From Macrostomum lignano (lineage: Eukaryota), in NCBI GenBank assembly GCA_002269645.1, contig NIVC01003533.1:1-64000 (forward strand): a DNA stretch of 64,000 nucleotides, written 5' to 3'. This document shows positions 20,226 to 35,279 of this stretch, in pieces (position 1 is the first letter of the stretch; the number at the start of each line of letters is the position of its first letter). The notes under the pieces are model-generated. The model searched no databases, was not told the DNA's origin, and saw nothing but the letters and a program-made list of their open reading frames with translations. A program made the translations under genes and the position numbers.

Positions 20226-20522
20226 ACCCTCCCCCTAAAGACCACCTCATCTGATTGGCTGTCGATTTTATTTGGTGTTTCAATTGGATGTACACCTCCG
20301 AACGTGCAGCAGTTATAGCTCCTTCCTCACTGTACCAGAGCCTAATTAGGAGAGGTCTTTTATAACAAAAAGGCTTTTGCCGACATGTCTATCTGCCTGG
20401 CTAATCCTTTGCCCAATAAATAAATAAATAAGTTCCATTTAAATAATAGACAGAACTCAGTCAGACATGCATTATTAAAAAATAAGCACCCTCTTACTCT
20501 GTTCCATATTACTTGATTAACA

Positions 20523-23405
20523 ATGCCCACCGTAATAGTACTACCAGCTATCATTATTGCTCTTGTGCTCACGGTTAGTAATGCAGCTCCTTTGTCGCTA
20601 AGAACTGGAGAGCAGCAGGAGCCTCGGCGCTGCCCATCCTTGATAGCTTGCTCGGCCGGCATGCGAGCGCTCTGGTTGTCTGACCCGGACGCTCCCGGTT
20701 GTCCGTTCCGGCTGTGCCTGCTGCCAGCCGACCCGTCTAGCCTCGATTCGATCGATCTCTCTCTGTCTAGATGCCCGCCAGCCGTGCTGACGTCCAACTG
20801 CTACGGCTGGCAAGCGACTGATCCAGCTGTACGCTGGACAGATCCGAGCGGCTGCCCGAAGCTCAACTGTACAGGCGGCGACGCCAGTGGCCCTTCCTGT
20901 CCCGGCTTGGAGACCTGCGCACCTGGCGAGCAATTGGAAACCTGGATTGACTCGGTCAGCGGCTGTCCTACAGGCCAGTGCGTTGAGATTTTCGCTGCCG
21001 CTACTAGCGACCAGGATTCGACAACAGTTACGAAAACTTCCTCTCCCGATGGTGCAAACGAAGCTGAAGAAATATCAACAGTGTTTTACGGAGTGACTTT
21101 TTCAGGGATGTTAAACTACCAACAGACCGAAGCGCCTCCAACCGAAGGCAGCCAGACAACGACCACTGAGACAACAATTTCTGCTGAAATATCCGATTTT
21201 GTATCGATGGCCGCTCAAAAGGACCAACCAGCTGAATCGGCAACAGCTCCAGCTGACCAGCAGGCTGAATCGGGGACAAATCCAGCTGACCAGTCTGCTG
21301 AATCGGTGACAACTCCAGCTGACCAGTCAGCCGAATCGGTGACAACTCCAGCTGACCAGTCAGATGAATCGGTGACAACTCCAGCTGACCAGTCAGCTGA
21401 ATCGGTGTCAACTCCAGCTGACCAGTCAGCTGAATCGGTGTCAACTCCAGCTGACCAGTCAGCCGAATCAGTGACAACTCCAGCTGACCAGTCAGCCGAA
21501 TCAGTGACAACTCCAGCTGACCAGTCAGCTGAATCGGTGTCAACTCCAGCTGACCAGTTAGATGAATCAGTGACAACTCCAGCTGACCAGTTAGATGAAT
21601 CAGTGACAACTCCAGCTGACCAGTCTGCTGAATCGGGGACAACTCCAGCTGACCAGTCTGCTGAATCGGTGTCAACTCCAGCTGACCAGTCAGCCGAATC
21701 AGTGACAACTCCAGCTGACCAGTCTGCTGAATCGGTGTCAACTCCAGCTGACCAGTTAGATGAATCAGTGACAACTCCAGCTGACCAGTTAGATGAATCA
21801 GTGACAACTCCAGCTGACCAGTCTGCTGAATCGGGGACAACTCCAGCTGACCAGTCTGCTGAATCGGTGTCAACTCCAGCTGACCAGCCAGCTGAATCGG
21901 TGACAACTCCAGCTGACCAGTCTGCTGAATCGGGGACAAATCCAGCTGACCAGTCTGCTGAATCAGTGACAACTCCAGCTGACCAGTCAGCCGAATCAGT
22001 GACAACTCCAGCTGACCAGTCAGCTGAATCGGTGTCAACTCCAGCTGACCAGTTAGATGAATCAGTGACAACTCCAGCTGACCAGTTAGATGAATCAGTG
22101 ACAACTCCAGCTGACCAGTCTGCTGAATCGGGGACAACTCCAGCTGACCAGTCTGCTGAATCGGTGTCAACTCCAGCTGACCAGTCAGCCGAATCAGTGA
22201 CAACTCCAGCTGACCAGTCAGCCGAATCAGTGACAACTCCAGCTGACCAGTCAGCTGAATCGGTGTCAACTCCAGCTGACCAGTTAGATGAATCAGTGAC
22301 AACTCCAGCTGACCAGTTAGATGAATCAGTGACAACTCCAGCTGACCAGTCTGCTGAATCGGGGACAACTCCAGCTGACCAGTCTGCTGAATCGGTGTCA
22401 ACTCCAGCTGACCAGCCAGCTGAATCGGTGACAACTCCAGCTGACCAGTCTGCTGAATCGGGGACAAATCCAGCTGACCAGTCTGCTGAATCGGGGACAA
22501 CTCCAGCTGACCAGTCAGCCGAATCGGTGGCAACTCCAGCTGACCAGTCTGCTGAATCGGTGACAACTCCAGCTGACCAGTCTGCTGAATCGGTGTCAAC
22601 TCCAGCTGACCAGTCAGATGAATCGGGGACAACTCCAGCTGACCAGTCAGATGAATCGGTGACAACTCCAGCTGACCAGTCAGCCGAATCAGTGACAACT
22701 CTAGCTGACCAGTCTGCTGAATCGGGGACAACTCCAGCTGACCAGTCAGATGAATCGGTGACAACTCCAGCTGACCAGTCAGATGAATCGGGGACAACTC
22801 CAGCTGACCAGTCAGATGAATCGGTGACAACTTCAGCTGACCAGTCAGCCGAATCAGTGACAACTCTAGCTGACCAGTCTGCTGAATCGGGGACAACTCC
22901 AGCTGACCAGTTAGCCGAATCAGTGACAACTCCAGCTGACCAGTCTGCTGAATCGGTGACAACTCCAGCTGACCAGTCTGCTGAATCGGTGTCAACTCCA
23001 GCTGACCAGTCAGATGAATCGGGGACAACTCCAGCTGACCAGTCAGATGAATCGGTGACAACTCCAGCTGACCAGTCAGCCGAATCAGTGACAACTCTAG
23101 CTGACCAGTCTGCTGAATCGGGGACAACTCCAGCTGACCAGTTAGCCGAATCAGTGACAACTCCAGCTGACCAGTCAGCCGAATCAGTGACAACTCCAGC
23201 TGACCAGTCAGCCGAATCAGTGACAACTCCAGCTGACCAGTCAGCCGAATCAGTGTCAACTCCAGCTGACCAGTCAGCTGAATCGGTGTCAACTCCAGCT
23301 GACCAGTCTGCTGAATCGGGGACAACTCCAGCTGACCAATCTGCTGAATCGGGGACAACTCCAGCTGACCAATCTGCTGAATCGGGGACGACTCTAACGA
23401 TTTAA
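20523..23405 (+). CDS. Secreted mucin-like acidic repeat protein (960 aa): signal peptide, three Cys-rich repeats, about 66 x 11-aa ADQSAESVTTP repeats
   Basis: ATG start, hydrophobic leader ending VSNA, uninterrupted ORF, AATAAA at 23797. Confidence 0.85.
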   Translation: MPTVIVLPAIIIALVLTVSNAAPLSLRTGEQQEPRRCPSLIACSAGMRALWLSDPDAPGCPFRLCLLPADPSSLDSIDLSLSRCPPAVLTSNCYGWQATDPAVRWTDPSGCPKLNCTGGDASGPSCPGLETCAPGEQLETWIDSVSGCPTGQCVEIFAAATSDQDSTTVTKTSSPDGANEAEEISTVFYGVTFSGMLNYQQTEAPPTEGSQTTTTETTISAEISDFVSMAAQKDQPAESATAPADQQAESGTNPADQSAESVTTPADQSAESVTTPADQSDESVTTPADQSAESVSTPADQSAESVSTPADQSAESVTTPADQSAESVTTPADQSAESVSTPADQLDESVTTPADQLDESVTTPADQSAESGTTPADQSAESVSTPADQSAESVTTPADQSAESVSTPADQLDESVTTPADQLDESVTTPADQSAESGTTPADQSAESVSTPADQPAESVTTPADQSAESGTNPADQSAESVTTPADQSAESVTTPADQSAESVSTPADQLDESVTTPADQLDESVTTPADQSAESGTTPADQSAESVSTPADQSAESVTTPADQSAESVTTPADQSAESVSTPADQLDESVTTPADQLDESVTTPADQSAESGTTPADQSAESVSTPADQPAESVTTPADQSAESGTNPADQSAESGTTPADQSAESVATPADQSAESVTTPADQSAESVSTPADQSDESGTTPADQSDESVTTPADQSAESVTTLADQSAESGTTPADQSDESVTTPADQSDESGTTPADQSDESVTTSADQSAESVTTLADQSAESGTTPADQLAESVTTPADQSAESVTTPADQSAESVSTPADQSDESGTTPADQSDESVTTPADQSAESVTTLADQSAESGTTPADQLAESVTTPADQSAESVTTPADQSAESVTTPADQSAESVSTPADQSAESVSTPADQSAESGTTPADQSAESGTTPADQSAESGTTLTI

Positions 23406-23874
23406 AAAGTGATTTTTTCTCATAAAAATGGCATTATTGAAGTCGTACCTTTCAATTTTGCAATTCGATCGATCCATTCGTTAGTTAGTTTGTTTAGTGT
23501 CGTTTACTGTCGTAATTTCATATTTGTAACAACTTTATGTTCTATTGATATATAATCTCCGTTAAAAAAAGAAAAAATGTTTCCTTTAGGCAATAATGAC
23601 TCGCTTGACAGTGGTGCGCTCGTAGAATTAAGTCTGACGTTTTGAAAGTGGCGCGTCAACTTTGTCAATTGCTTTATTACACTGTCGTTTGAAAGACTGG
23701 CATCCAATTCAATCTCAATTCATATACCTTCAATTTCGCATTAAGTCTTTTGTGAATGCGATTGCTTCTTCTGTGAGTATTTTCGTGCCTTCAATCAATA
23801 AAGAATCATAAAACAGTTTAGTTTAGGGATGTGAACTATGAAGATTAGGTCAAGACAAAGAAACTTTATGAATT

Positions 23875-25097
23875 TGTGGTGATCCAGCGTAGCTAGCATA
23901 GGCTGCTCCTGGGATCCCCTCTTAGTCAGTTAGTGCTTGGGCTGCAGCAGTGGGAGCTGGGCATAGGGCTGTCCCTTCCTCCTCTTCCCTTGTGCAGGCT
24001 CAGGTGTGCAGCTGTCGCGGGACAGGGAGAGAAACTCTCTCCCCCTCTCCCCCTGGCGCAGTCTGCAATGGGCTAAAAATAGAAACATTAGTCAGTGGGA
24101 TATTTCTCCTTTAGTACAGGCTTATTTAGTCAGCGGGAGTGAGAGCATAGCTCTCCGCCCGGGGTAGGATTTCGTGGGGTCTTGGTTGCACTCCTTGCAT
24201 GCGGCAACATGCAAGCAGTGTACCAGCAGGCCATGCGGAGGCTGCATGATGAGGCAGATGTCTTATGGACATCTCCAAGATCGCTCCTGGCTCCGGGTAG
24301 TCCACGGAACTGCCATGGGATCTGCCACGGAACTGCCTCTGAGCTTCCCATTGGCCCTGAGACCCCCGAATTTTAGTATAAATACAGAGTAGGTGAAGGC
24401 CCAAAGAGACCATCCTCTCGGAGACCGCCTGCTTGGCTTCGAGCAAAGGCTAGTATTCCTAGATGCTTTTCCTAGACGAACTAGCTTAGGCAGATCGCTA
24501 GACGCTTTTCCTAGGGATAACCTGCTAACAAATCTTTGTTGCAGCTGCCATTTGCTCATTAAGATTGCCGCAGGTCTTTGTGTCAGCAGCTCGCCAGACC
24601 TTCAACACCGTCTGGACCTGGTCTCGTGGCCTACAACCTACACTGTTGGGCAACATCAACTGACGCACAGTACAGCTTAGGGCGTTTACTGCGACACCAG
24701 TTGAGCTACTAAACGATATTTTAGGATCGGCCTGTGACCGTTACTCACATTAATAAATGTTTAACTGACTTGTTTGTCTTATTTATTTTCTACTTATCAG
24801 TAGGCCTACCTAGGGGTAACCTGTCGAGGATATCACCTGTAGACCTACAAGGTGGCAGCAACCCAACTACCAATACTCGGTTATTATCTAACTGTACTCA
24901 GTGGAGACTAAGAGGGGTTAATTCGGACCATAGTGCTAGACCACTCAGGCCAGCTACCGGCCGTGCTAGATAGCGAGGACAGACAGAGGAAGCAGTAGGC
25001 ACAGCCATAACACTGGTGGCAGCGGTGGGATAACAAGACCTACCCGACCACCCAGGGAAATCCTTGTTATATCTCAGGCGAAAGCCACGGCATAACA
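23875..25097 (+). repeat. 5' LTR (1223 bp)
   Basis: Matches 31662-32884 at a constant offset of 7787; TATAAATA at 24377; AATAAA at 24752. Confidence 0.97.
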
Positions 25098-25098
25098 C

Positions 25099-25116
25099 TG
25101 GTGGCAGCGGTGGGAT
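25099..25116 (+). promoter_or_regulatory. Primer binding site complementary to the 3' end of tRNA-Leu
   Basis: TGGTGGCAGCGGTGGGAT is the reverse complement of ATCCCACCGCTGCCA-CCA; starts 1 nt after the LTR. Confidence 0.9.
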
Positions 25117-25181
25117 CCGGTAAAACGACCACGTCAATCCTTCGTCCACCTACGTCTTAGTCTCACTTAGTAATCATAGCA

Positions 25182-26149
25182 ATGTCTATTGCCAGCAGTC
25201 GTGCTTCAATGGCACCACCTGACGATGGTGCTGGAGCAGGAGCTGAGGAACCGGTACTAGGCGAACGTCTTGATCGTCTCGCTGATGCACTGGAGCGCCA
25301 GCTTGGTATAGGCCAAGTCAGGCAGCATGTCAAGATGGCTAAATACACGCCATCCCAAGACATCCGCACGTGGATCAAAGCCTTCGATCTTCGCTGCGAT
25401 ACCGAAGACATTCGTGCCTGCCACAGGAAGGCGGAGTTGCTCGCCAACCTTGACGTGCACACGGCGTATGCTTCGGTCCTGCGCCTGAACTTGCCAGACC
25501 ATCTGGAGTACGAAGAGTTTAAGGAAGCGCTGATTGAGAGATTCTCAAAGAGAGGCGGCTCACAGGAATTCCGAGAAGATTTCCGCTGCCGAACTCAGCG
25601 CAAGAACGAGGACATTGACGAGTTTGCAGATGCTCTCCGCGAACTCGGAGAACTCGCTTATCCTTATCTCTTGCCAGCTCAGCTCGAATCAGAACTTGTT
25701 GATCAGTTCCTGAAAGGTGTCAGAACTACAATTGAGGCGAGAGAACGGCTGTACTGGGGTCGTCCAGAGACTCTACAGGACGCCAAGTTCGCCTTCAAGC
25801 GCATCGAGACAGCGCGTGAGCTTGCTGCCCGCAGCAGTAAAGACGCACCCTGTCGCAGCCTGGTGGGGACAAAGCTACGGTTCCCCGACAGGACGATGAG
25901 CTTAAGAATCTAATCAGGCATCAGAATGAGGTTCTGCAGAAGCAGCAGCAGATGCTTGAGCAGCTTCTCAAGCAGACGCCAGCCGCACCTGTCAGAGATA
26001 GGCTGCAAGGCATTGTGTGCCACGAGTGCGGCAAACCAGGCCACAAGAGGCCTGACTGTCCTAAGTTCAAGGCTCAGAAGCCGGGAAACGTCCGGGCGGG
26101 GGTTGCCAACCAAAACCCTCTCCAGGGCCAACCCCCGAAGTCGCACTAA
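25182..26149 (+). CDS. gag: gag (capsid-like domain plus CCHC zinc knuckle), one frame break near 25850
   Basis: WIKAFDLRC...YEEFKEALIERF...FRCRTQRKNEDIDEFADALRELGELAY; CHECGKPGHKRPDC. Confidence 0.9.
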
Positions 26150-29100
26150 AGCAGTCTGGAGAGTCTGGCGATACCGTAGACTCTTCCTTTGTAAATAATG
26201 TATATAACTCTGGTGCTGATCCTTATGTAACTGCGCTTATTTTCGGCCAACAGGTTCCCTTGCTTCTCGACAGCGGGAGCAGACTGAACCTGATGGGCCT
26301 TTCTACTTGGCGATTGTTATCGCGCAGTACTGCACATGCATGCGTAGTTACACCTACTTATTCCGATCGTATTCTAACCTATGATGGTTCTGAATTACAG
26401 CTAACCGGTAAGGTTATGCTTGATGTTGTCTTCGGAGATTTCTCAGCTGAAGCTGAATTCTACATTGTAAGCGGCGATCAGGAGAATCTCCTAGGCATTG
26501 ATTTTATGAGGAAGCACTGTCGGACCTTGGAGTTCCAGACAGGAATGCTTACCCTCACTACTGGTACTTGTGTACCCGTGCGCTATACGCGCCGTGAGCC
26601 AACCTCGTGCAGAGTCTATGTTGCCGGAAAACATCAGATTCCTGCTCGAAGTTCTGGCCTCATATCTGTGCAACTGGCACGTGGCAAAGAATCGAATTAT
26701 GGAGTGCCAGCAGTGGTTGAACCACTCAGATCTGGACTCCGCGCTGGGCTTTCCCAGGTCCGCGCATCTGCAGCATTGGTAACGATGCATGAAGGCAAAG
26801 GCTGCATGGAAGTTGTTAATCCTAACAACTTTCCAGTTAATATAGCCAAAGGAGCCTTGGTGGGCCTTGCCACACCGCTCCGGACGCAAGACCTCGAGTA
26901 CTATCCAGAACTGAAAGCAACACCTGTGCGCAAGTTGCACCTAGACGATAACATCAATTCAGCCAGTGACGATTGGATCAATGAGATAGAGATAGGCGAT
27001 TCGATCACGGAGGACCAGAAGTCCCAGGTTCGAGAGCTGATCAGAGAGTCGCGTAATGCGTTCTCCACGCACACTCTTGATCACGGTCTGACTCACCTGG
27101 TGACCCATCAGATCGTCATGCGAGACGAGACTCCAGTTAGGATCCCAGCTCGCAGGGTTCCCCCGCACCTACAAGATCAGGTCAATCAGCTGCTAGATGA
27201 GATGCTAGAGAAGGGCTTGATCAGGCCATCTTATTCAAGCTACAGCTCTCCTATCTTAGTAGTGCCTAAGAAGGACAAATCTGTCCGCATAGTCCATGAC
27301 TATCGCGAGCTGAATGAGAATGCGAATATCGCCCGTATCCGTTGCCATCTATCCAGGAGACGTTTGCATGTCTCCGTGGATCTCAATGGTTCAGCAGCTT
27401 GGATCTTGCTCAAGGGTTCTATCAGATCCCGTTGCGTGAAGAGGATCGTTTTCGCACAGCCTTCTCAGTGATCAATCGAGGTCAGTTTGAGTTCAACGTC
27501 TTGCCTATGGGGCTTCGCGATAGCCCTGGAGCCTTCCAGCGATGCATCAATATGCTGCTAGACGGTATCACTAAGTTCGCCTTAGGATACATGGATGACA
27601 TTGTCATTCATAGTATTGCCTTCGAGGAGCACCTCGAACATCTTCGCGAAATGTTCAGGCGGCTCATTGAAGCCAATCTTAAGCTAAAGCCACGCAAATG
27701 CCATCTGTTTAAGACAGAGTTGCACTATCTCGGACATGTAGTCGATAGACGAGGCATTAGGACTAATGAAGACAAGGTACAGCAGATACTAGACTGGCCG
27801 CGTCCTCAGACAGTCAAGCAGCTGCAGAGCTTTCTAGGTCTCTGTAACTACTATGCCAAATTCGTCAAGAATTACGCCGAAATTGCTGCCCCGTTGCATC
27901 AATTGACTCGGAAGAACCTTGTTGGGTTCAAGGGGCTCTGGACAGAGCAACACTCGAAAGCTTTCGATGAGCTCAAGAAGAAGCTGTGCTCTACTGAGGT
28001 CCTCGCGTACCCAGAGTACAACACAGACCCAGACACAGTCTTCGTCCTGGATTGTGATGCCTCCGGTTTCCGAATCGGCGCCTGTTTAGGCCAGCGCCAA
28101 TCCGATGGTGCGGAGCGGCCTGTTGCCTATTTTAGTCGGAAATTGCGCGAGCCTGAAACGAGGTACAACAACACCAAGCGTGAGCTTTTGGCCGTTGTTG
28201 ACTCGATGAGGCATTTTCGATATTACTTAATCGGCAAGAGATTTGAGGTTAGAACAGACCACAGGGCTCTTCTTTGGCTCATTCGCCAGACTGAAGCCGA
28301 AGGGATCTTGGGTCGTTGGGTCGAACGGCTAAGTGAATTCGACTTTGCTGTCATTCATCGGAAGGGAAGTTTGCACCAGAACGCAGACAGCTTATCAAGA
28401 AAGCCGGACGGTCCGGAGTTCGATGACTGTCGTCCTGGAGCACGGACACCCAACCAGACAGAAAATGAGGCCACTGTACCCTCAGCCCTCGATTAGTCGA
28501 AGACGCCGACCAAGTAACATCCAGCAGTTCTGCCTCGCAGGAATCTCGTATTGCCGTCGCCGGCTCATCATGTTGTCCCTCAGTGGACCGATGTCCGACA
28601 CCCGTTATTGCGGCCGTTTCTGCCGACTCAACATGTTGTTCCTCAGTGAACCGTTGTTCGGCTGGAGCGTCCGAGGCTGTCTGCCAGACTGATGCGACAT
28701 GTTGTCCCTCAGTGGACCGCCGCTCAGAATGGGCAGCCAAGGTTGCTGGTTTAGCTGTGGACTTTGCCCCAGTTGGACGCCACACTACCGCACCTACGGC
28801 CATAGAAGCTGTTCGCCCTCGTGTCTCAGGTGACCTGACCGCAGGAATCCGGACCGACGACGCAGCAAGGCCATTATCTGCTTCAATAACGGAATCAGCG
28901 AACCGTAGCGTTAGTGAGGATGTTCCTCCACGCTGTCGTGTTCTGCTTAGTGATTTTCTGTCCGAACCTCTGAAGCGAGACCAACTGCTCCTCGAGCAGC
29001 AGAAGGACCCGGACATTGAGTTCGTCAGAAATCTTTTAGCGACTAGTTCGCCCAAGCCGTCCTTTGACGCCCGACTACGTCTTAGTAGGGATACGCGCAA

Positions 29101-31454
29101 CCTACTAGGCTACTTTGAGATGTTGCGGCTAGTAGACAACCTGCTCGTCTACGATGAAGACATAGCAGACCGTCCACCGCGCATTGTGCTGCCGAAGAGT
29201 CTAGATGACCAGGTGTTCAAAGAGCTCCATGATGCTCCCTTGAGTGGACACCTTGGCGAAACTAAGACCTATCTTCGGGTTAGACAAAGGTTTTGGAGGC
29301 CGTCTTTGAGCAAAGCGGTTAAGGCCTACGTGGCCCGATGTCGAGTTGCCTGGAGAGCAAGACTCGCCGTCGCGAAGCCGTGCCCGTGCAGAGCTTCCCA
29401 GTCTGTGAAGTATGGGACGGCTACACTGCGACGTTGTCGGCCCAATCTCGCAGCCTTCGCGAGCTGGCCACCGCTATATTCTGACTCTGTGCGATGCTAC
29501 TTCAAAATACCCTTTTGCGTTCCCTATGCGGAACCAGAAGACCAAGACCGTAGTCAAGATTCTTCAGGAAAGATTGTTTCCGGAGTACGGTGTACCAGCG
29601 TGGCTGCACACCGACCAAGGAACGAATTTCACTGGAAAGGACTTTAAGAAGTTTTGTGAGCTGTACGGCATTAGGCACACGACTACAACGCCGTATAATC
29701 CTAGTTCGAATGGCCAGGTGGAAAATCTCAACAAGACAATCAAGAGTGTACTCACGTGCTTGCTGGAGAAGAATCACCAAGATTGGGATACCTTCCTCCC
29801 AGCATGCATGATCGCTCTGCGATCTAGCGTTCACCCGGTTACAGGGTTTACGCCCTACTTCTTGGTCTTTGGAAGAGAATTCCGGATGCCCATTGATAAT
29901 GAGCTTCGGGTCCCACCTGAATATCCGGACTTGCCAACGTACGTCCAAGACTTCCAGAAGAGACTAGAGGAAGCTAATCAGTTAGCCCAGGACCGTGTGA
30001 AGCTGCATCAAGAACTTCGCGATGAACATTATGAGAATCGCCCGAAGGCCAAGCAGCTCTCACCGGGTGACCTAGTCTTCCTGAACAATCCAGTCTTAGA
30101 TCAGTCTTGGGAAGCGCAGAAATTTCACAGACCGCGCAAGGCTGTGTATGAAGTAGTAGAGCGCAAAGGAGAAGTTGTCTACAAGATCAGACCTCGCCTC
30201 CGGAATCCTAGGGCTCGTCGAGAGGAGTTGGTGGTGCACCGTCGCAATATGCTACCGGTTCCGCAAGCTGACTATCCAGAGCCAGCTGGCCGGGCAGCTG
30301 AGCACCGTGCTGGGCCGCCGCGTAAGCCTCGCGTTGCCATAGAAACCACTGCCTCTCAGAATACCGGCGAAGTCGCCGATGACGTTGACGAGCTCGATGA
30401 CGATAATAACGACTGGGCTCCGCGCTACTTTCTGCGTCCGGCCGCAGCACTAGCAGCGATCCCAGAAGTCGCCGAACCTGAAATGAATAAAAATGGGGTA
30501 GCTGTTCATGAGCAACCTGAAACACCTAGGGACATAGAACAGCCCGAAGCGGTGCCCCCGGACCCTCAGCCTGTTGCTGAGCGCCCGCGGAGAGACCGCC
30601 GAGCCCCAGATAGACTAATAATGAATCCTAGAGCTAAATCTTATGTTGCTAGGATCAGGGATGCGCTCGCCTCTTCAATAAGGCGCTTCTTTCCGCATTC
30701 CAGCACCATCATGAGCGAGGACGAGATGCCTCTAGAGCAGCAGCTCTCTCTGTCAGCTTCGAACGACTCTTTCGAGCCGATCGAGTCATCATCACCGCGT
30801 CCCGATGAAGGGCGGGTGAAGACCCAGCCAACGCCAATACCGTCTGGCCCGCCGGTTACAGCGCCCATCGGCATTACCCGCCGTACATTATTGCGAGTCG
30901 ACACGAACGTCCAGGCTGTGGCCGGGCCTCAAACAGAGCCAACCCCTAGGAAGACGGCCCTGTTGGAGAAGCCCCCGGCCAGAGGCCGGGCAGCGGCAGG
31001 ACCATCGAGGAGTCGCTCCCGGCAGCGCGCGGCCAACTGGCAGCCCGCTGGACGGCCGACGGCCTTGGAAAGGCTGGGAGGGCGAAGCCGCTCCCCTCCT
31101 AGCAAGGTGGCACCGGCCAGCAGTGGCGGGACGGCCTGTAGCAGCCAGTCGCAGCCGGCCAGGGAGCCTATCAAGCAGATGATCGCGGCCATTCTGCTGA
31201 AAGCCGCGTATACCGGAGAAGTAACGGCCTGGTCCACACCGCAAACCATTGCACTAAAGGCTATGGCCGAGGATGAGCGGCGCGCCCTCATCAACGAAGC
31301 CTTCACGAGAACGCGCTCTTTGCTCATGCCATATCGGCATTACGCCGTGGCGTTGGAGGCCGCAGTACGCAGAGCAGCTCAAGATCTCGGCCGCATGCCG
31401 GCCCTATCAGCCGAGGCCCTCGCTCTGCTGAATACGGCGAGGCCGGCCCATTAA
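26065..31454 (+). CDS. pol: pol (protease, RT, RNase H, integrase) with four frame breaks and a long C-terminal extension
   Basis: LLDSGS protease; LDLAQGFYQI, GYMDDI RT; LDCDAS, RELLAVV, TDHRAL RNase H; HDAPLSGHLG...RCRVC, CDVVGP, HTDQG, NGQVENLN integrase. Confidence 0.93.
26083..26163 (+). promoter_or_regulatory. -1 programmed ribosomal frameshift signal (G GGA AAC plus predicted H-type pseudoknot)
   Basis: Heptamer is in the gag frame; pol is in the -1 frame and open from 26065; 9-bp and 8-bp stems read directly. Confidence 0.85.
30711..31454 (+). CDS. Extra 247-aa non-env module (possible ORF3), in frame with integrase
   Basis: Own ATG 7 nt after a strong 3' splice site; acidic N-terminus, Arg/Ser-rich middle, helical-looking C-terminus; no transmembrane segment or signal peptide. 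Confidence 0.6.
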   Translation: MSEDEMPLEQQLSLSASNDSFEPIESSSPRPDEGRVKTQPTPIPSGPPVTAPIGITRRTLLRVDTNVQAVAGPQTEPTPRKTALLEKPPARGRAAAGPSRSRSRQRAANWQPAGRPTALERLGGRSRSPPSKVAPASSGGTACSSQSQPAREPIKQMIAAILLKAAYTGEVTAWSTPQTIALKAMAEDERRALINEAFTRTRSLLMPYRHYAVALEAAVRRAAQDLGRMPALSAEALALLNTARPAH

Positions 31455-31649
31455 TGGAGACGCTCGTCTACAGTAGCTCATTGTGGGGCATAAGGCCTCA
31501 CAGGCGTATTGGCTCAGGCCTTTCAGTATAACTATCAGCTTCTGTGTATTGGCCTATGGCCTTTCTCTAATTGATACCTACATGACTTATTAAATACATT
31601 GACTTACCTTACTTGATGAAGAACCTCCTGGTGTCGCTTCTTCTTTTTC

Positions 31650-31661
31650 AGGTGGGGTGGG
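31650..31661 (+). promoter_or_regulatory. Polypurine tract
   Basis: AGGTGGGGTGGG directly before the TG of the 3' LTR. Confidence 0.75.
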
Positions 31662-32884
31662 TGTGGTGATCCAGCGTAGCTAGCATAGGCTGCTCCTGGG
31701 ATCCCCTCTTAGTCAGTTAGTGCTTGGGCTGCAGCAGTGGGAGCTGGGCATAGGGCTGTCCCTTCCTCCTCTTCCCTTGTGCAGGCTCAGGTGTGCAGCT
31801 GTCGCGGGACAGGGAGAGAAACTCTCTCCCCCTCTCCCCCTGGCGCAGTCTGCAATGGGCTAAAAATAGAAACATTAGTCAGTGGGATATTTCTCCTTTA
31901 GTACAGGCTTATTTAGTCAGCGGGAGTGAGAGCATAGCTCTCCGCCCGGGGTAGGATTTCGTGGGGTCTTGGTTGCACTCCTTGCATGCGGCAACATGCA
32001 AGCAGTGTACCAGCAGGCCATGCGGAGGCTGCATGATGAGGCAGATGTCTTATGGACATCTCCAAGATCGCTCCTGGCTCCGGGTAGTCCACGGAACTGC
32101 CATGGGATCTGCCACGGAACTGCCTCTGAGCTTCCCATTGGCCCTGAGACCCCCGAATTTTAGTATAAATACAGAGTAGGTGAAGGCCCAAAGAGACCAT
32201 CCTCTCGGAGACCGCCTGCTTGGCTTCGAGCAAAGGCTAGTATTCCTAGATGCTTTTCCTAGACGAACTAGCTTAGGCAGATCGCTAGACGCTTTTCCTA
32301 GGGATAACCTGCTAACAAATCTTTGTTGCAGCTGCCATTTGCTCATTAAGATTGCCGCAGGTCTTTGTGTCAGCAGCTCGCCAGACCTTCAACACCGTCT
32401 GGACCTGGTCTCGTGGCCTACAACCTACACTGTTGGGCAACATCAACTGACGCACAGTACAGCTTAGGGCGTTTACTGCGACACCAGTTGAGCTACTAAA
32501 CGATATTTTAGGATCGGCCTGTGACCGTTACTCACATTAATAAATGTTTAACTGACTTGTTTGTCTTATTTATTTTCTACTTATCAGTAGGCCTACCTAG
32601 GGGTAACCTGTCGAGGATATCACCTGTAGACCTACAAGGTGGCAGCAACCCAACTACCAATACTCGGTTATTATCTAACTGTACTCAGTGGAGACTAAGA
32701 GGGGTTAATTCGGACCATAGTGCTAGACCACTCAGGCCAGCTACCGGCCGTGCTAGATAGCGAGGACAGACAGAGGAAGCAGTAGGCACAGCCATAACAC
32801 TGGTGGCAGCGGTGGGATAACAAGACCTACCCGACCACCCAGGGAAATCCTTGTTATATCTCAGGCGAAAGCCACGGCATAACA
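31662..32884 (+). repeat. 3' LTR
   Basis: No mismatch to the 5' LTR found by eye; followed by the AATT TSD. Confidence 0.97.
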
Positions 32885-35279
32885 AATTCTATGATCCAAG
32901 TCGTGACAACGGCGGTGAGGTGGGGGCACGGGTAAGGGACCAGAAAAGACTGGCCTTGGCCGTAGGCGATTGGCCAACTCGTTGCCCCTCTGCTTCCAGG
33001 TCTGAGATCAACTTTGACCTTTAATTACTCGACTATTCACCCACCCACAAGCTGTGCATGGTGTCTAATAGAAGATCGAAAAAGCTGACGCGAAAAGCGA
33101 AAGGAGTAATTCGACCAGCTGACAGTTAAAATTAGCTTTTTGGGTTTTTTTGCGATACCACAGACTGGGATCGATCACAGCGCGCCCAGACCCAAACCTC
33201 CACTGCACGCCTCCTGGAAATGTGCCGTTGCTTGGTTGCTTGAGTCAATATGGCTCATCTGGGCTGAATCCTTTACATGGGACCTCATATATGATCACCA
33301 AAGCCGGGCTCGCTATTTGTTCGGCACCCAGAACTGAATGGTGCCGCTTTTACTTTGTCCCACAGTTAAGTCGTCGCCTTAGCAAGAGGAACACAGACCG
33401 CCAGCTCAAAGTCGTTTGGTCAACTTGGCGAGCGAACACGGGACTTAGCTGCTGAGCGCTCTCGAATTTGCGCACTTGTTTACATGTATATTGCATCGAT
33501 ATTATAGCATACGCAATCTATACTAATCGATAAAATCAATCTGATCCATAGCAATGCCAATAAGTGCTGATTAAAACCCTGAGTATTACTTGACATAATT
33601 TTTATTGACATAACTCTTGACATAAAACTTGACATAACAAATGTAATATATGAAAAATGTTCGGGTTAGTACGCATTTGCATGCTGTACATTGAAATTTT
33701 GGAGCGTATTAGGCAAAATCCACTCTTTCTAAAATTGCCGTACTAAAGGGATATTTACAAAATTATTAGGCATGGGCGCGCACGAATACTTAAAATTAAC
33801 AAGAACTTAGTACGATTAAACTCCGTTGCAGATTAAGCAGTAAAACAATGTCATGTTTTTGCTTTACATACTATTATAAAAAAGTATAATTATAATTAAT
33901 GAAGTAAAAGTTTTTCTAAACTACCAGTATTACATGATAAGTAATGTAGCAACAATATTTTCTATTTTTAGATACGAAGCATAACCTTATCTCGCAATCG
34001 TTTAAAATAGTCTCAGTTAATAAATTATCGCTTTTGCCAGTCTCAGCATTTTTTCGCTTTCCTTCAAGGTACTGTTGTTTACTCTAACATTTTAAAGAAT
34101 TTTAATGATAATCTTTCTCATACGATTTTTGACTCACTACTGTATGCATGTATATGTTGTGCTATATAAATTTGTATAATAATTTTCATTTAAAGCACTT
34201 ATTTTTCTAATAGACTAATAGTAATACCTTTTTATGAAGAATGTTTTAACTTGAGAAAAAAGTTGAAAGAATATCCTTTTATTTGCAATTTACATTTACA
34301 TTTACAAATTTCTAAGTGGACCAAACTCTGATAAATAATGGCTAATTCTTTTATAACAATGTAATATTTATTAAATATTTTTGTTCTTAACATTTATTGC
34401 TTAGTTTTTATATAAAATACAAAATATAGTTGAATTAAAAGTTTTTTAAAACAAGGTTGTTCACCTTATCACCTAAGTGATCTTGTTGTAGTATCAATAT
34501 GGTCATTGATTTTTTAAAAGATAATATTATTGTAAGTCTTTAATATTTAAATATTTAAATTAAAATAGTCTAAATATATATCTTTAATATATATAGATAG
34601 ATATACATATATATTATCCTTTTTAGCAAAGAGGATATAGAATAGCATATACCCTATCTATATATGTATCAATTTACATTTAATATTGAACATTTATTGA
34701 CATTATTATTGTATATGCTTCAAAATAACAAAATCAGTTGTTTTTTCAATTTTTATAAAATTGAAAAATATATTTTAGTTGTAATTTCTTTTTTATTAAA
34801 TATATTCTTTCTTTGCAATGTACTACTTATAAACATGTAAACATAAATTTTGTTTGTTCTTCCATTTTATAATGCAATTGTTATAAACTTTCATGCACTA
34901 TTGTTTTGACTTAAACTAATTTAGCAACACCAGAAACTGCCTGCTGTAATCCCTAGTGACAGACTTTCTTCAGTCCTGGGGCTGCTGCAAAAGCCTTGAG
35001 CTGATTGCCTCAAAGCTTCAACATGGCTACTGATCTGATGCATTCGCCCCTGTTCAGTAACATGTAAGGTTTTGAGTTGCATTTTCTGTTGTTCTGTGAG
35101 GTTTTCGTGTAATGAGGAGATCAGTAGACTATAGATATTTAATAGTTTTTATATATATAACCATTTGTCTTTAGACAATTGGTCAGAAACATTGCTTGTA
35201 TCTGAAATGCTGTAGAATCAGAACTATATAGCTCAATTATTCAAGTGCTTCAAGTCATACTGAAAGATTAATTGGGTGC

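Follow-up and report, generated by a model that had tools for sequence, protein, structure and literature searches.

A copy-variable primer-binding-site cassette inside the LTRs of Ty3/Gypsy elements of Macrostomum lignano

Introduction

By the standard scheme of LTR-retrotransposon replication, the position of the primer site determines where the LTR ends on its 3′ side, and plus-strand strong-stop DNA moves to the end of the minus strand. A Ty3/Gypsy element of Macrostomum lignano carries a second complete primer-binding site (PBS) within both of its LTRs, which raises the questions of where this site came from and whether it is used. The element lies in contig NIVC01003533.1, of which we analyzed positions 1 to 64,000 (the window). 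A preliminary description of the window read the inner site as the product of an older duplication of the U5 end, PBS and leader, and suggested that it might provide a second priming site, a cryptic integration end or a decoy for 3′ tRNA fragments (3′-tRFs). Here we report that the site belongs to a cassette whose number varies among copies and which is common to several families.

A second complete PBS in both LTRs

The element occupies positions 23875-32884 of the window and contains the following features (coordinates, strand, feature).

23871..23874, +, left target-site duplication (TSD) AATT
23875..25097, +, 5′ LTR, 1223 bp, TG...CA, identical to the 3′ LTR
24377..24384, +, TATA-like box by motif position, function putative; the U3/R border would lie just 3′ of it
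24752..24757, +, AATAAA by motif position, putative poly(A) signal
24851..24859, +, U5 box I, 9-nt partial PBS match (GGTGGCAGC); sister families have the same box
24937..24958, +, U5 box II, complement of tRNA-Leu(UAG) nt 1-22 with one insertion and one deletion
25006..25012, +, inner LTR-end motif CATAACA, the actual LTR end in cassette-less siblings
25013..25097, +, 85-nt cassette: spacer base, inner PBS, fold-back arm and new CA end
25014..25031, +, inner PBS, perfect 18-nt complement of the tRNA-Leu 3′ end
25036..25055, +, arm pairing back on the inner PBS, predicted hairpin of -19.1 kcal/mol; its head is common to other families
25099..25116, +, outer (canonical) PBS
25161..31454, +, gag-pol region in six overlapping frames: zinc knuckle, reverse transcriptase (RT), RNase H, integrase
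31650..31661, +, polypurine tract (PPT)
31662..32884, +, 3′ LTR, containing box II (32724-32745), the cassette (32800-32884) and the inner PBS (32801-32818)
32885..32888, +, right TSD AATT

The element is young, with zero mismatches between its LTRs. It was assigned to Ty3/Gypsy on the basis of its TG...CA LTRs, the PBS after the 5′ LTR, the PPT before the 3′ LTR and the TSD, together with a Ty3-like RT and RNase H that precede the integrase. Pfam domains occur in the order RVT_1, RT_RNaseH, Integrase_H2C2 and rve; the best solved relative is Ty3 RT (E 1.8e-64), and the best named protein match comes from M. lignano itself (63%). In 26065-27468, where an aspartic protease would be expected upstream of the RT, Pfam returned no match, and a DSG motif is visible in the translation. 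Several frame breaks interrupt gag-pol in this copy. The integrase frame (29409-31454) runs about 400 aa past the C-terminal domain, with a proline/arginine-rich tail and without a Pfam match. A separate frame of 962 aa (20517-23405) contains an 11-aa (33-nt) repeat in about 65 copies; its end lies 470 bp upstream of the element.

An exact search of the window located the PBS 18-mer TGGTGGCAGCGGTGGGAT at 25014, 25099 and 32801, directly preceded at 25006, 25091 and 32793 by CATAACAC. The second complete tRNA-Leu PBS described earlier is therefore exact in both LTRs. The 18-mer complements, base for base, the 3′ end plus CCA of tRNA-Leu(AAG/UAG), encoded by 12 genes of the same genome, in which it has 666 exact matches while its reversed control has none. 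Because the TATA-like box and AATAAA lie at 24377 and 24752, respectively, the cassette and its inner PBS are probably part of U5. Integration at the outer CA was likewise confirmed, as the AATT duplication sits after it. In two further sequencing runs (X3 and X6), contigs cover 25034-25116 and show a single difference, and thus the unit is no artefact of this assembly. Tandem arrays of whole elements and TRIMs were considered and ruled out, as the 85-nt unit has neither a PPT nor U3/R.

Cassette number in the family of the window element

The cassette is polymorphic in copy number. We examined 67 LTRs of the family, 64 collected by an anchor motif and three more; since some loci sit on two contigs, not all copies are independent. 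The window-type cassette is present in 39 copies. The inner PBS is a family-wide feature and is not confined to the window copy.

Ten elements of this family could be scored at both ends. Eight have one cassette per LTR and end at the outer CA. C1746 has zero cassettes and ends at the inner CA (TSD CATA). C1967 has two cassettes at its 5′ junction versus one in the 3′ LTR (TSD CCAG); a second contig of this insertion, C3017, stops inside the junction and cannot confirm the asymmetry. The preliminary description had proposed to look for copies that end at the inner CA with a TSD of their own. Four insertions do so, namely the full-length C1746 and the solo LTRs C1407, C3106 and C3314 (one insertion seen twice), which makes the inner CA a working integration end. 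Another solo LTR, C2378, carries two cassettes, and C616, with no 3′ LTR within 20 kb, has two different cassette variants in tandem.

Changes in cassette number recur on a tree of LTR bodies, which was built from 51 of the 67 LTRs, leaving out 16 partial ones, and which is blurred by recombination. Cassette-less rows are nested within cassette-bearing clades, at least four changes are forced by well-supported branches, and three two-cassette rows sit apart from one another (three separate changes). The cassette is missing from each of the 24 older LTRs (<93% identity, 18 of them distinct); the family therefore acquired it.

Some other arrangements were noted in the course of this survey. Older and shorter PBS captures include decayed PBS relics upstream in subfamily B and a 35-nt array at C251 (L076:1866-1970), an independent PBS array without the arm, with three 35-nt units on GGGATCC microhomology. 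A further independent, armless PBS array with 59-nt units occurs at C246 (L075), a locus without an RT match. At C255 (L006-L008, L060), three elements of the window's family stand in tandem with LTRs in common, the last one truncated, and have a single TSD, CTCG.

Related cassettes in sister families

Genome-wide, the 3′ part of the PBS is followed by the cassette head at 358 sites, and the exact sister-type arm occurs at 283 sites. These sites are those of sister families, which match the window's family at 69-70% of RT amino acids and 64-71% of coding DNA, and their LTRs align to the window LTR only at the PBS and cassette head, with 80-93% identity over 42-66 nt including the PBS. The cassette head is thus more alike between families than their genes are. 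Comparison of the window unit with a sister cassette aligned 22 of 26 nt, a score reached in none of 2000 shuffles.

Among 54 sister 5′ junctions, 30 of which had been picked for a bulged PBS, inner sites numbered none in 35, one in 12 and two in 7. Nineteen junctions thus have inner sites; 16 of these elements were scorable at both ends, and two lack a 3′ LTR in the stretch examined. Thirteen of the 16 are symmetric and end at the outermost CA (C100, for example, has one cassette on each side), and three are asymmetric: C163 with one versus zero cassettes (TSD TAAT, LTRs 99.9% alike), C440 with two versus one and C206 with one versus two. In C511 the U5 ends differ between the two LTRs. When the window and sister families were pooled, 21 of 25 two-ended elements were symmetric, with the 3′ LTR ending at the outermost CA, and four differed by one cassette.

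The outer PBS of the sister families often contains an inherited 2-nt insertion, which occurs in three forms, one of them in 43 exact copies, and the bulged outer PBS still sets the LTR end. The bulge is passed on over many young insertions, often without any perfect PBS (e.g. L133-L161, L192, L201); among the first 30 sister junctions selected by leader, 9 have a perfect outer PBS. It is possible that the bulge serves to evade 3′-tRFs, and also that it can be used to test inheritance of the tRNA sequence; its inheritance fits transfer by R-U5 homology without such inheritance. In sister family B (L064, L198-L211) the leader is a 21-nt tandem repeat, the start of which continues the complement of the tRNA T-loop.

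Our comparisons did not yield a donor for the middle part of the window-type cassette, and none of the sampled junctions has the cassette head as its leader. The leader of another family was considered as a source and rejected, as both candidate loci lack gag, RT and integrase matches downstream. Two-PBS patterns were absent from viral and metagenome contigs, which hold little animal DNA.

Probable exchange of cassettes by strand transfer

We consider it probable, on balance, that the 85-nt PBS-bounded cassette is acquired, dropped and exchanged when plus-strand transfer between co-packaged RNAs goes to the wrong PBS (mis-landing), and that it rarely serves for priming. Priming would normally occur at the outermost PBS, so that all cassettes would be copied into both LTRs, and the predicted hairpin may lower the use of the inner site as a primer site. 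If plus-strand strong-stop DNA landed on the inner PBS of a second RNA, one cassette would be added at the 5′ junction; one would be lost if the DNA moved from an inner position to the outer PBS. The next replication cycle would turn such a one-sided change symmetric. Because all tRNA-Leu families have the same PBS, this would be the only homology required for a jump between families, and the same step could carry the cassette from one to another. This scheme accounts for the series of zero, one and two cassettes, for asymmetry in both directions and for mixed junctions; two-RNA events would be expected to yield the two variants in C616 and the differing U5 ends of C511. The similarity between families could also stem from strong selection on a module inherited vertically.

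The earlier idea of two priming sites gains no clear support, given that 21 of the 25 two-ended elements end at the outermost CA and that the asymmetric ones fit strand transfer between RNAs equally well. In C163, C440 and C1967 inner priming would give the same products as mis-landing, so that these copies speak neither for nor against it. The asymmetry as such fits inner priming, mis-landing, slippage between the 26-nt repeats after integration and assembly error equally, and cannot separate them.

Under the mis-landing scheme the cassette would be a passenger with a possible transmission advantage and would not be needed by the element. The advantage is a prediction of the scheme, yet many copies have no cassette, including 35 of the 54 sister junctions. 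A bolder version remains tentative, and we regard it as possible but doubtful: the cassette may be a selfish, self-masking, PBS-bounded sub-element that originated when copying read through into the primer tRNA, passes from one unrelated LTR family to another by PBS homology alone, is over-transmitted from mixed RNA pairs and makes the U5/att boundary movable and exchangeable.

Folding and tRNA pairing

Computed folds bear on the masking of the inner site. Wherever an exact PBS is followed by the arm, the same hairpin register is predicted, at -16.5 to -22.9 kcal/mol (p=0.015 for the window context), compared with -7 to -14 kcal/mol for leader-followed PBSs, which lack that hairpin. In folds of 600-700 nt, lower accessibility of the inner PBS was not seen, both sites of the window being equally paired (mean unpaired 0.25-0.28). 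The predicted net binding of tRNA-Leu is -18 kcal/mol at the inner and -21 kcal/mol at the outer site, with the tRNA predicted to open the hairpin; binding at the inner site is predicted to be weaker in the window's family and two sister families and stronger in family C. Since the long folds are equal and the tRNA is still predicted to bind, masking by the hairpin would be partial at best. Selection on hairpin stems over the loop appears weak, as 4 of the 18 positions contain 5 of the 11 distinct changes (p=0.075).

The U5 boxes, too, are predicted to pair with the primer. The complementarity of box II to nt 1-22 of tRNA-Leu(UAG) was reached by 0 of 400 shuffles and favours the UAG over the AAG isoacceptor. 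That older LTRs conserve box II is a circular result, since the motif itself served to collect them; only C246, an unrelated locus that has the box too, was found independently. Box I diverges by 5% in older LTRs versus 14-24% in its flanks. In all families examined (L132-L161, L198), a partial PBS of 9-10 nt occurs 100-220 nt upstream of the LTR end; after it comes CTACC, which is complementary to the 5′ end of the tRNA. The cassette head resembles the box at 24937-24958, and because of this likeness and its own tRNA complementarity the head may descend from a tRNA-templated or tRNA-binding sequence.

Alternative explanations

The alternative that survives best, although we think it rather unlikely, is that the cassette is a selected module for extended tRNA-Leu binding, in which the PBS and complements of the T-loop and D-arm are laid out like the Ty1 boxes. 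Such a module would recruit or hand over the primer tRNA, or bridge an RNA dimer, and would help a weak or bulged outer PBS. In older sister cassettes the head indeed extends complementarity to the T-loop and D-arm of tRNA-Leu(UAG) (p<=0.03 in 4 of 7 inner contexts), AGACC and GGCCA are retained around a spacer of variable length, and box II indicates that these elements pair with the tRNA 5′ half. However, D-arm pairing of the window arm does not exceed that of shuffles (p=0.27), and a duplex test of the extension gave p=0.08-0.6 for all contexts. Sequence constraint is similarly divided. The preliminary description had proposed comparing the substitution rate of the inner PBS with its surroundings: the site is invariant in 23 LTRs of the window's family (0 of 414 letters changed), but this does not differ significantly from the LTR body (p=0.11). 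In the sister families 26 of 76 inner sites carry changes, although the 26 substitutions leave the first six PBS bases untouched. Moreover, of 43 junctions whose outer PBS is imperfect, 31 lack a cassette.

It is improbable that the unit arose when U5 end, PBS and leader were duplicated locally, in tandem and neutrally, with the number changed by DNA slippage or unequal recombination after integration. The direct 26-nt repeats would permit slippage, and the C251 array on its GGGATCC microhomology and the PBS relics of subfamily B speak for this reading. The motifs CGACCAC and AATCCTT, on which the duplication had originally been proposed, are present after both PBSs; however, the best local alignment of the unit with its own leader is 7 nt long (p=0.30, 2000 shuffles). 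The unit head matches foreign cassettes and not the leader, the head is the leader of no sampled junction, and the bulge of the adjacent outer PBS appears in 0 of 76 and 0 of 26 inner sites. A duplication of the element's own leader is not supported.

Still less probable is a decoy or sponge role, in which the inner PBS would capture 3′ tRNA-Leu fragments and thereby shield the true PBS. Repression of LTR elements by 3′-tRFs via the PBS is described in the available part of PMC12853362, and sister elements do retain a bulged outer PBS beside perfect inner ones. However, an additional perfect site would offer silencing one more target on the same RNA, self-folding is predicted for the inner site, 14 of the 26 sister substitutions fall in the part that a tRF seed would read, and most bulged elements have no cassette. 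The decoy reading, too, is not supported.

That the repeats are assembly artefacts can practically be dismissed: despite the frame breaks in the window copy and single three-PBS junctions known from contigs alone, the 39 window-type copies and the contigs of independent runs refute it for the one-cassette state.

Comparison with known systems

A close comparison is provided by cestode Saci2 and its kin, Ty3/Gypsy elements (Metaviridae) with a tRNA-Leu PBS, which resemble the window element in their TG...CA LTRs, 4-bp TSD, tRNA-Leu primer and RT-RNase H-integrase order, as far as the available part of PMC12471100 describes them. The window element differs in having full PBS cassettes in both LTRs and in variable number, a feature that this part of PMC12471100 does not mention for Saci2.

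Additional tRNA-complementary sites beyond the canonical PBS are already known. According to the consulted sections of PMC5371799, Ty1 and Ty3 have a split PBS and pair with the D and T arms of the tRNA, and (section 2.2) they do not inherit the tRNA sequence, transfer occurring by R-U5 homology. Drosophila gypsy has a second PBS at the RNA 3′ end, which is dispensable for cDNA synthesis, as stated in the part of PMC1635307 available. The extra sites described in these two sources are fixed, being either split or single at the RNA 3′ end, whereas the window element has a complete 18-nt PBS within U5 that comes with an integration end, varies in copy number and is common to several families. 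Lying 260 nt downstream of AATAAA, the inner site is probably outside the RNA 3′ end, unlike the second PBS of gypsy. A bipartite PBS of the Ty1/Ty3 type, in which a second segment completes a canonical site that is too short by itself, was considered and rejected, as the outer PBS matches over all 18 nt at each of 16 junctions of the window's family. Computed D/T-arm pairing is significant for U5 box II and some sister cassettes and not for the window cassette.

Retroviral vectors engineered to carry two PBSs offer another parallel; in those of Voronin and Pathak, dual priming or transfer reportedly deletes the stretch between the PBSs. The same intervening stretch is missing from C1746-type copies. 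However, such vectors are artificial and unstable, whereas the cassettes described here are natural and persistent and show gains as well as losses. Deletions in the HIV LTR are the subject of PMC9278108, as far as its available part shows. A natural, copy-variable PBS cassette inside LTRs and common to several families was not found in our literature search, which had supplements, repeat databases and subscription journals outside its scope; PBS, primer binding and tRNA are absent from the main text of PMC12801592. We found no description of PBS cassettes in LTRs.

Implications

The cassette is real, family-wide and more widespread than the single window copy could reveal. Tools for annotation and dating treat the LTR end and the PBS as fixed, but here the end shifts in cassette steps, and a young element can have one cassette more in one LTR than in the other. 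The copies constitute a natural record of plus-strand transfer in animal Ty3/Gypsy elements, where a retrovirus-like mode at the PBS stands against a Ty1/Ty3-like transfer through U5, a choice so far tested mainly in yeast. With an inherited bulged PBS next to perfect inner sites, the question of tRF evasion becomes testable in one genome. The cassettes also suggest a route of sequence exchange between families that have a common primer tRNA.
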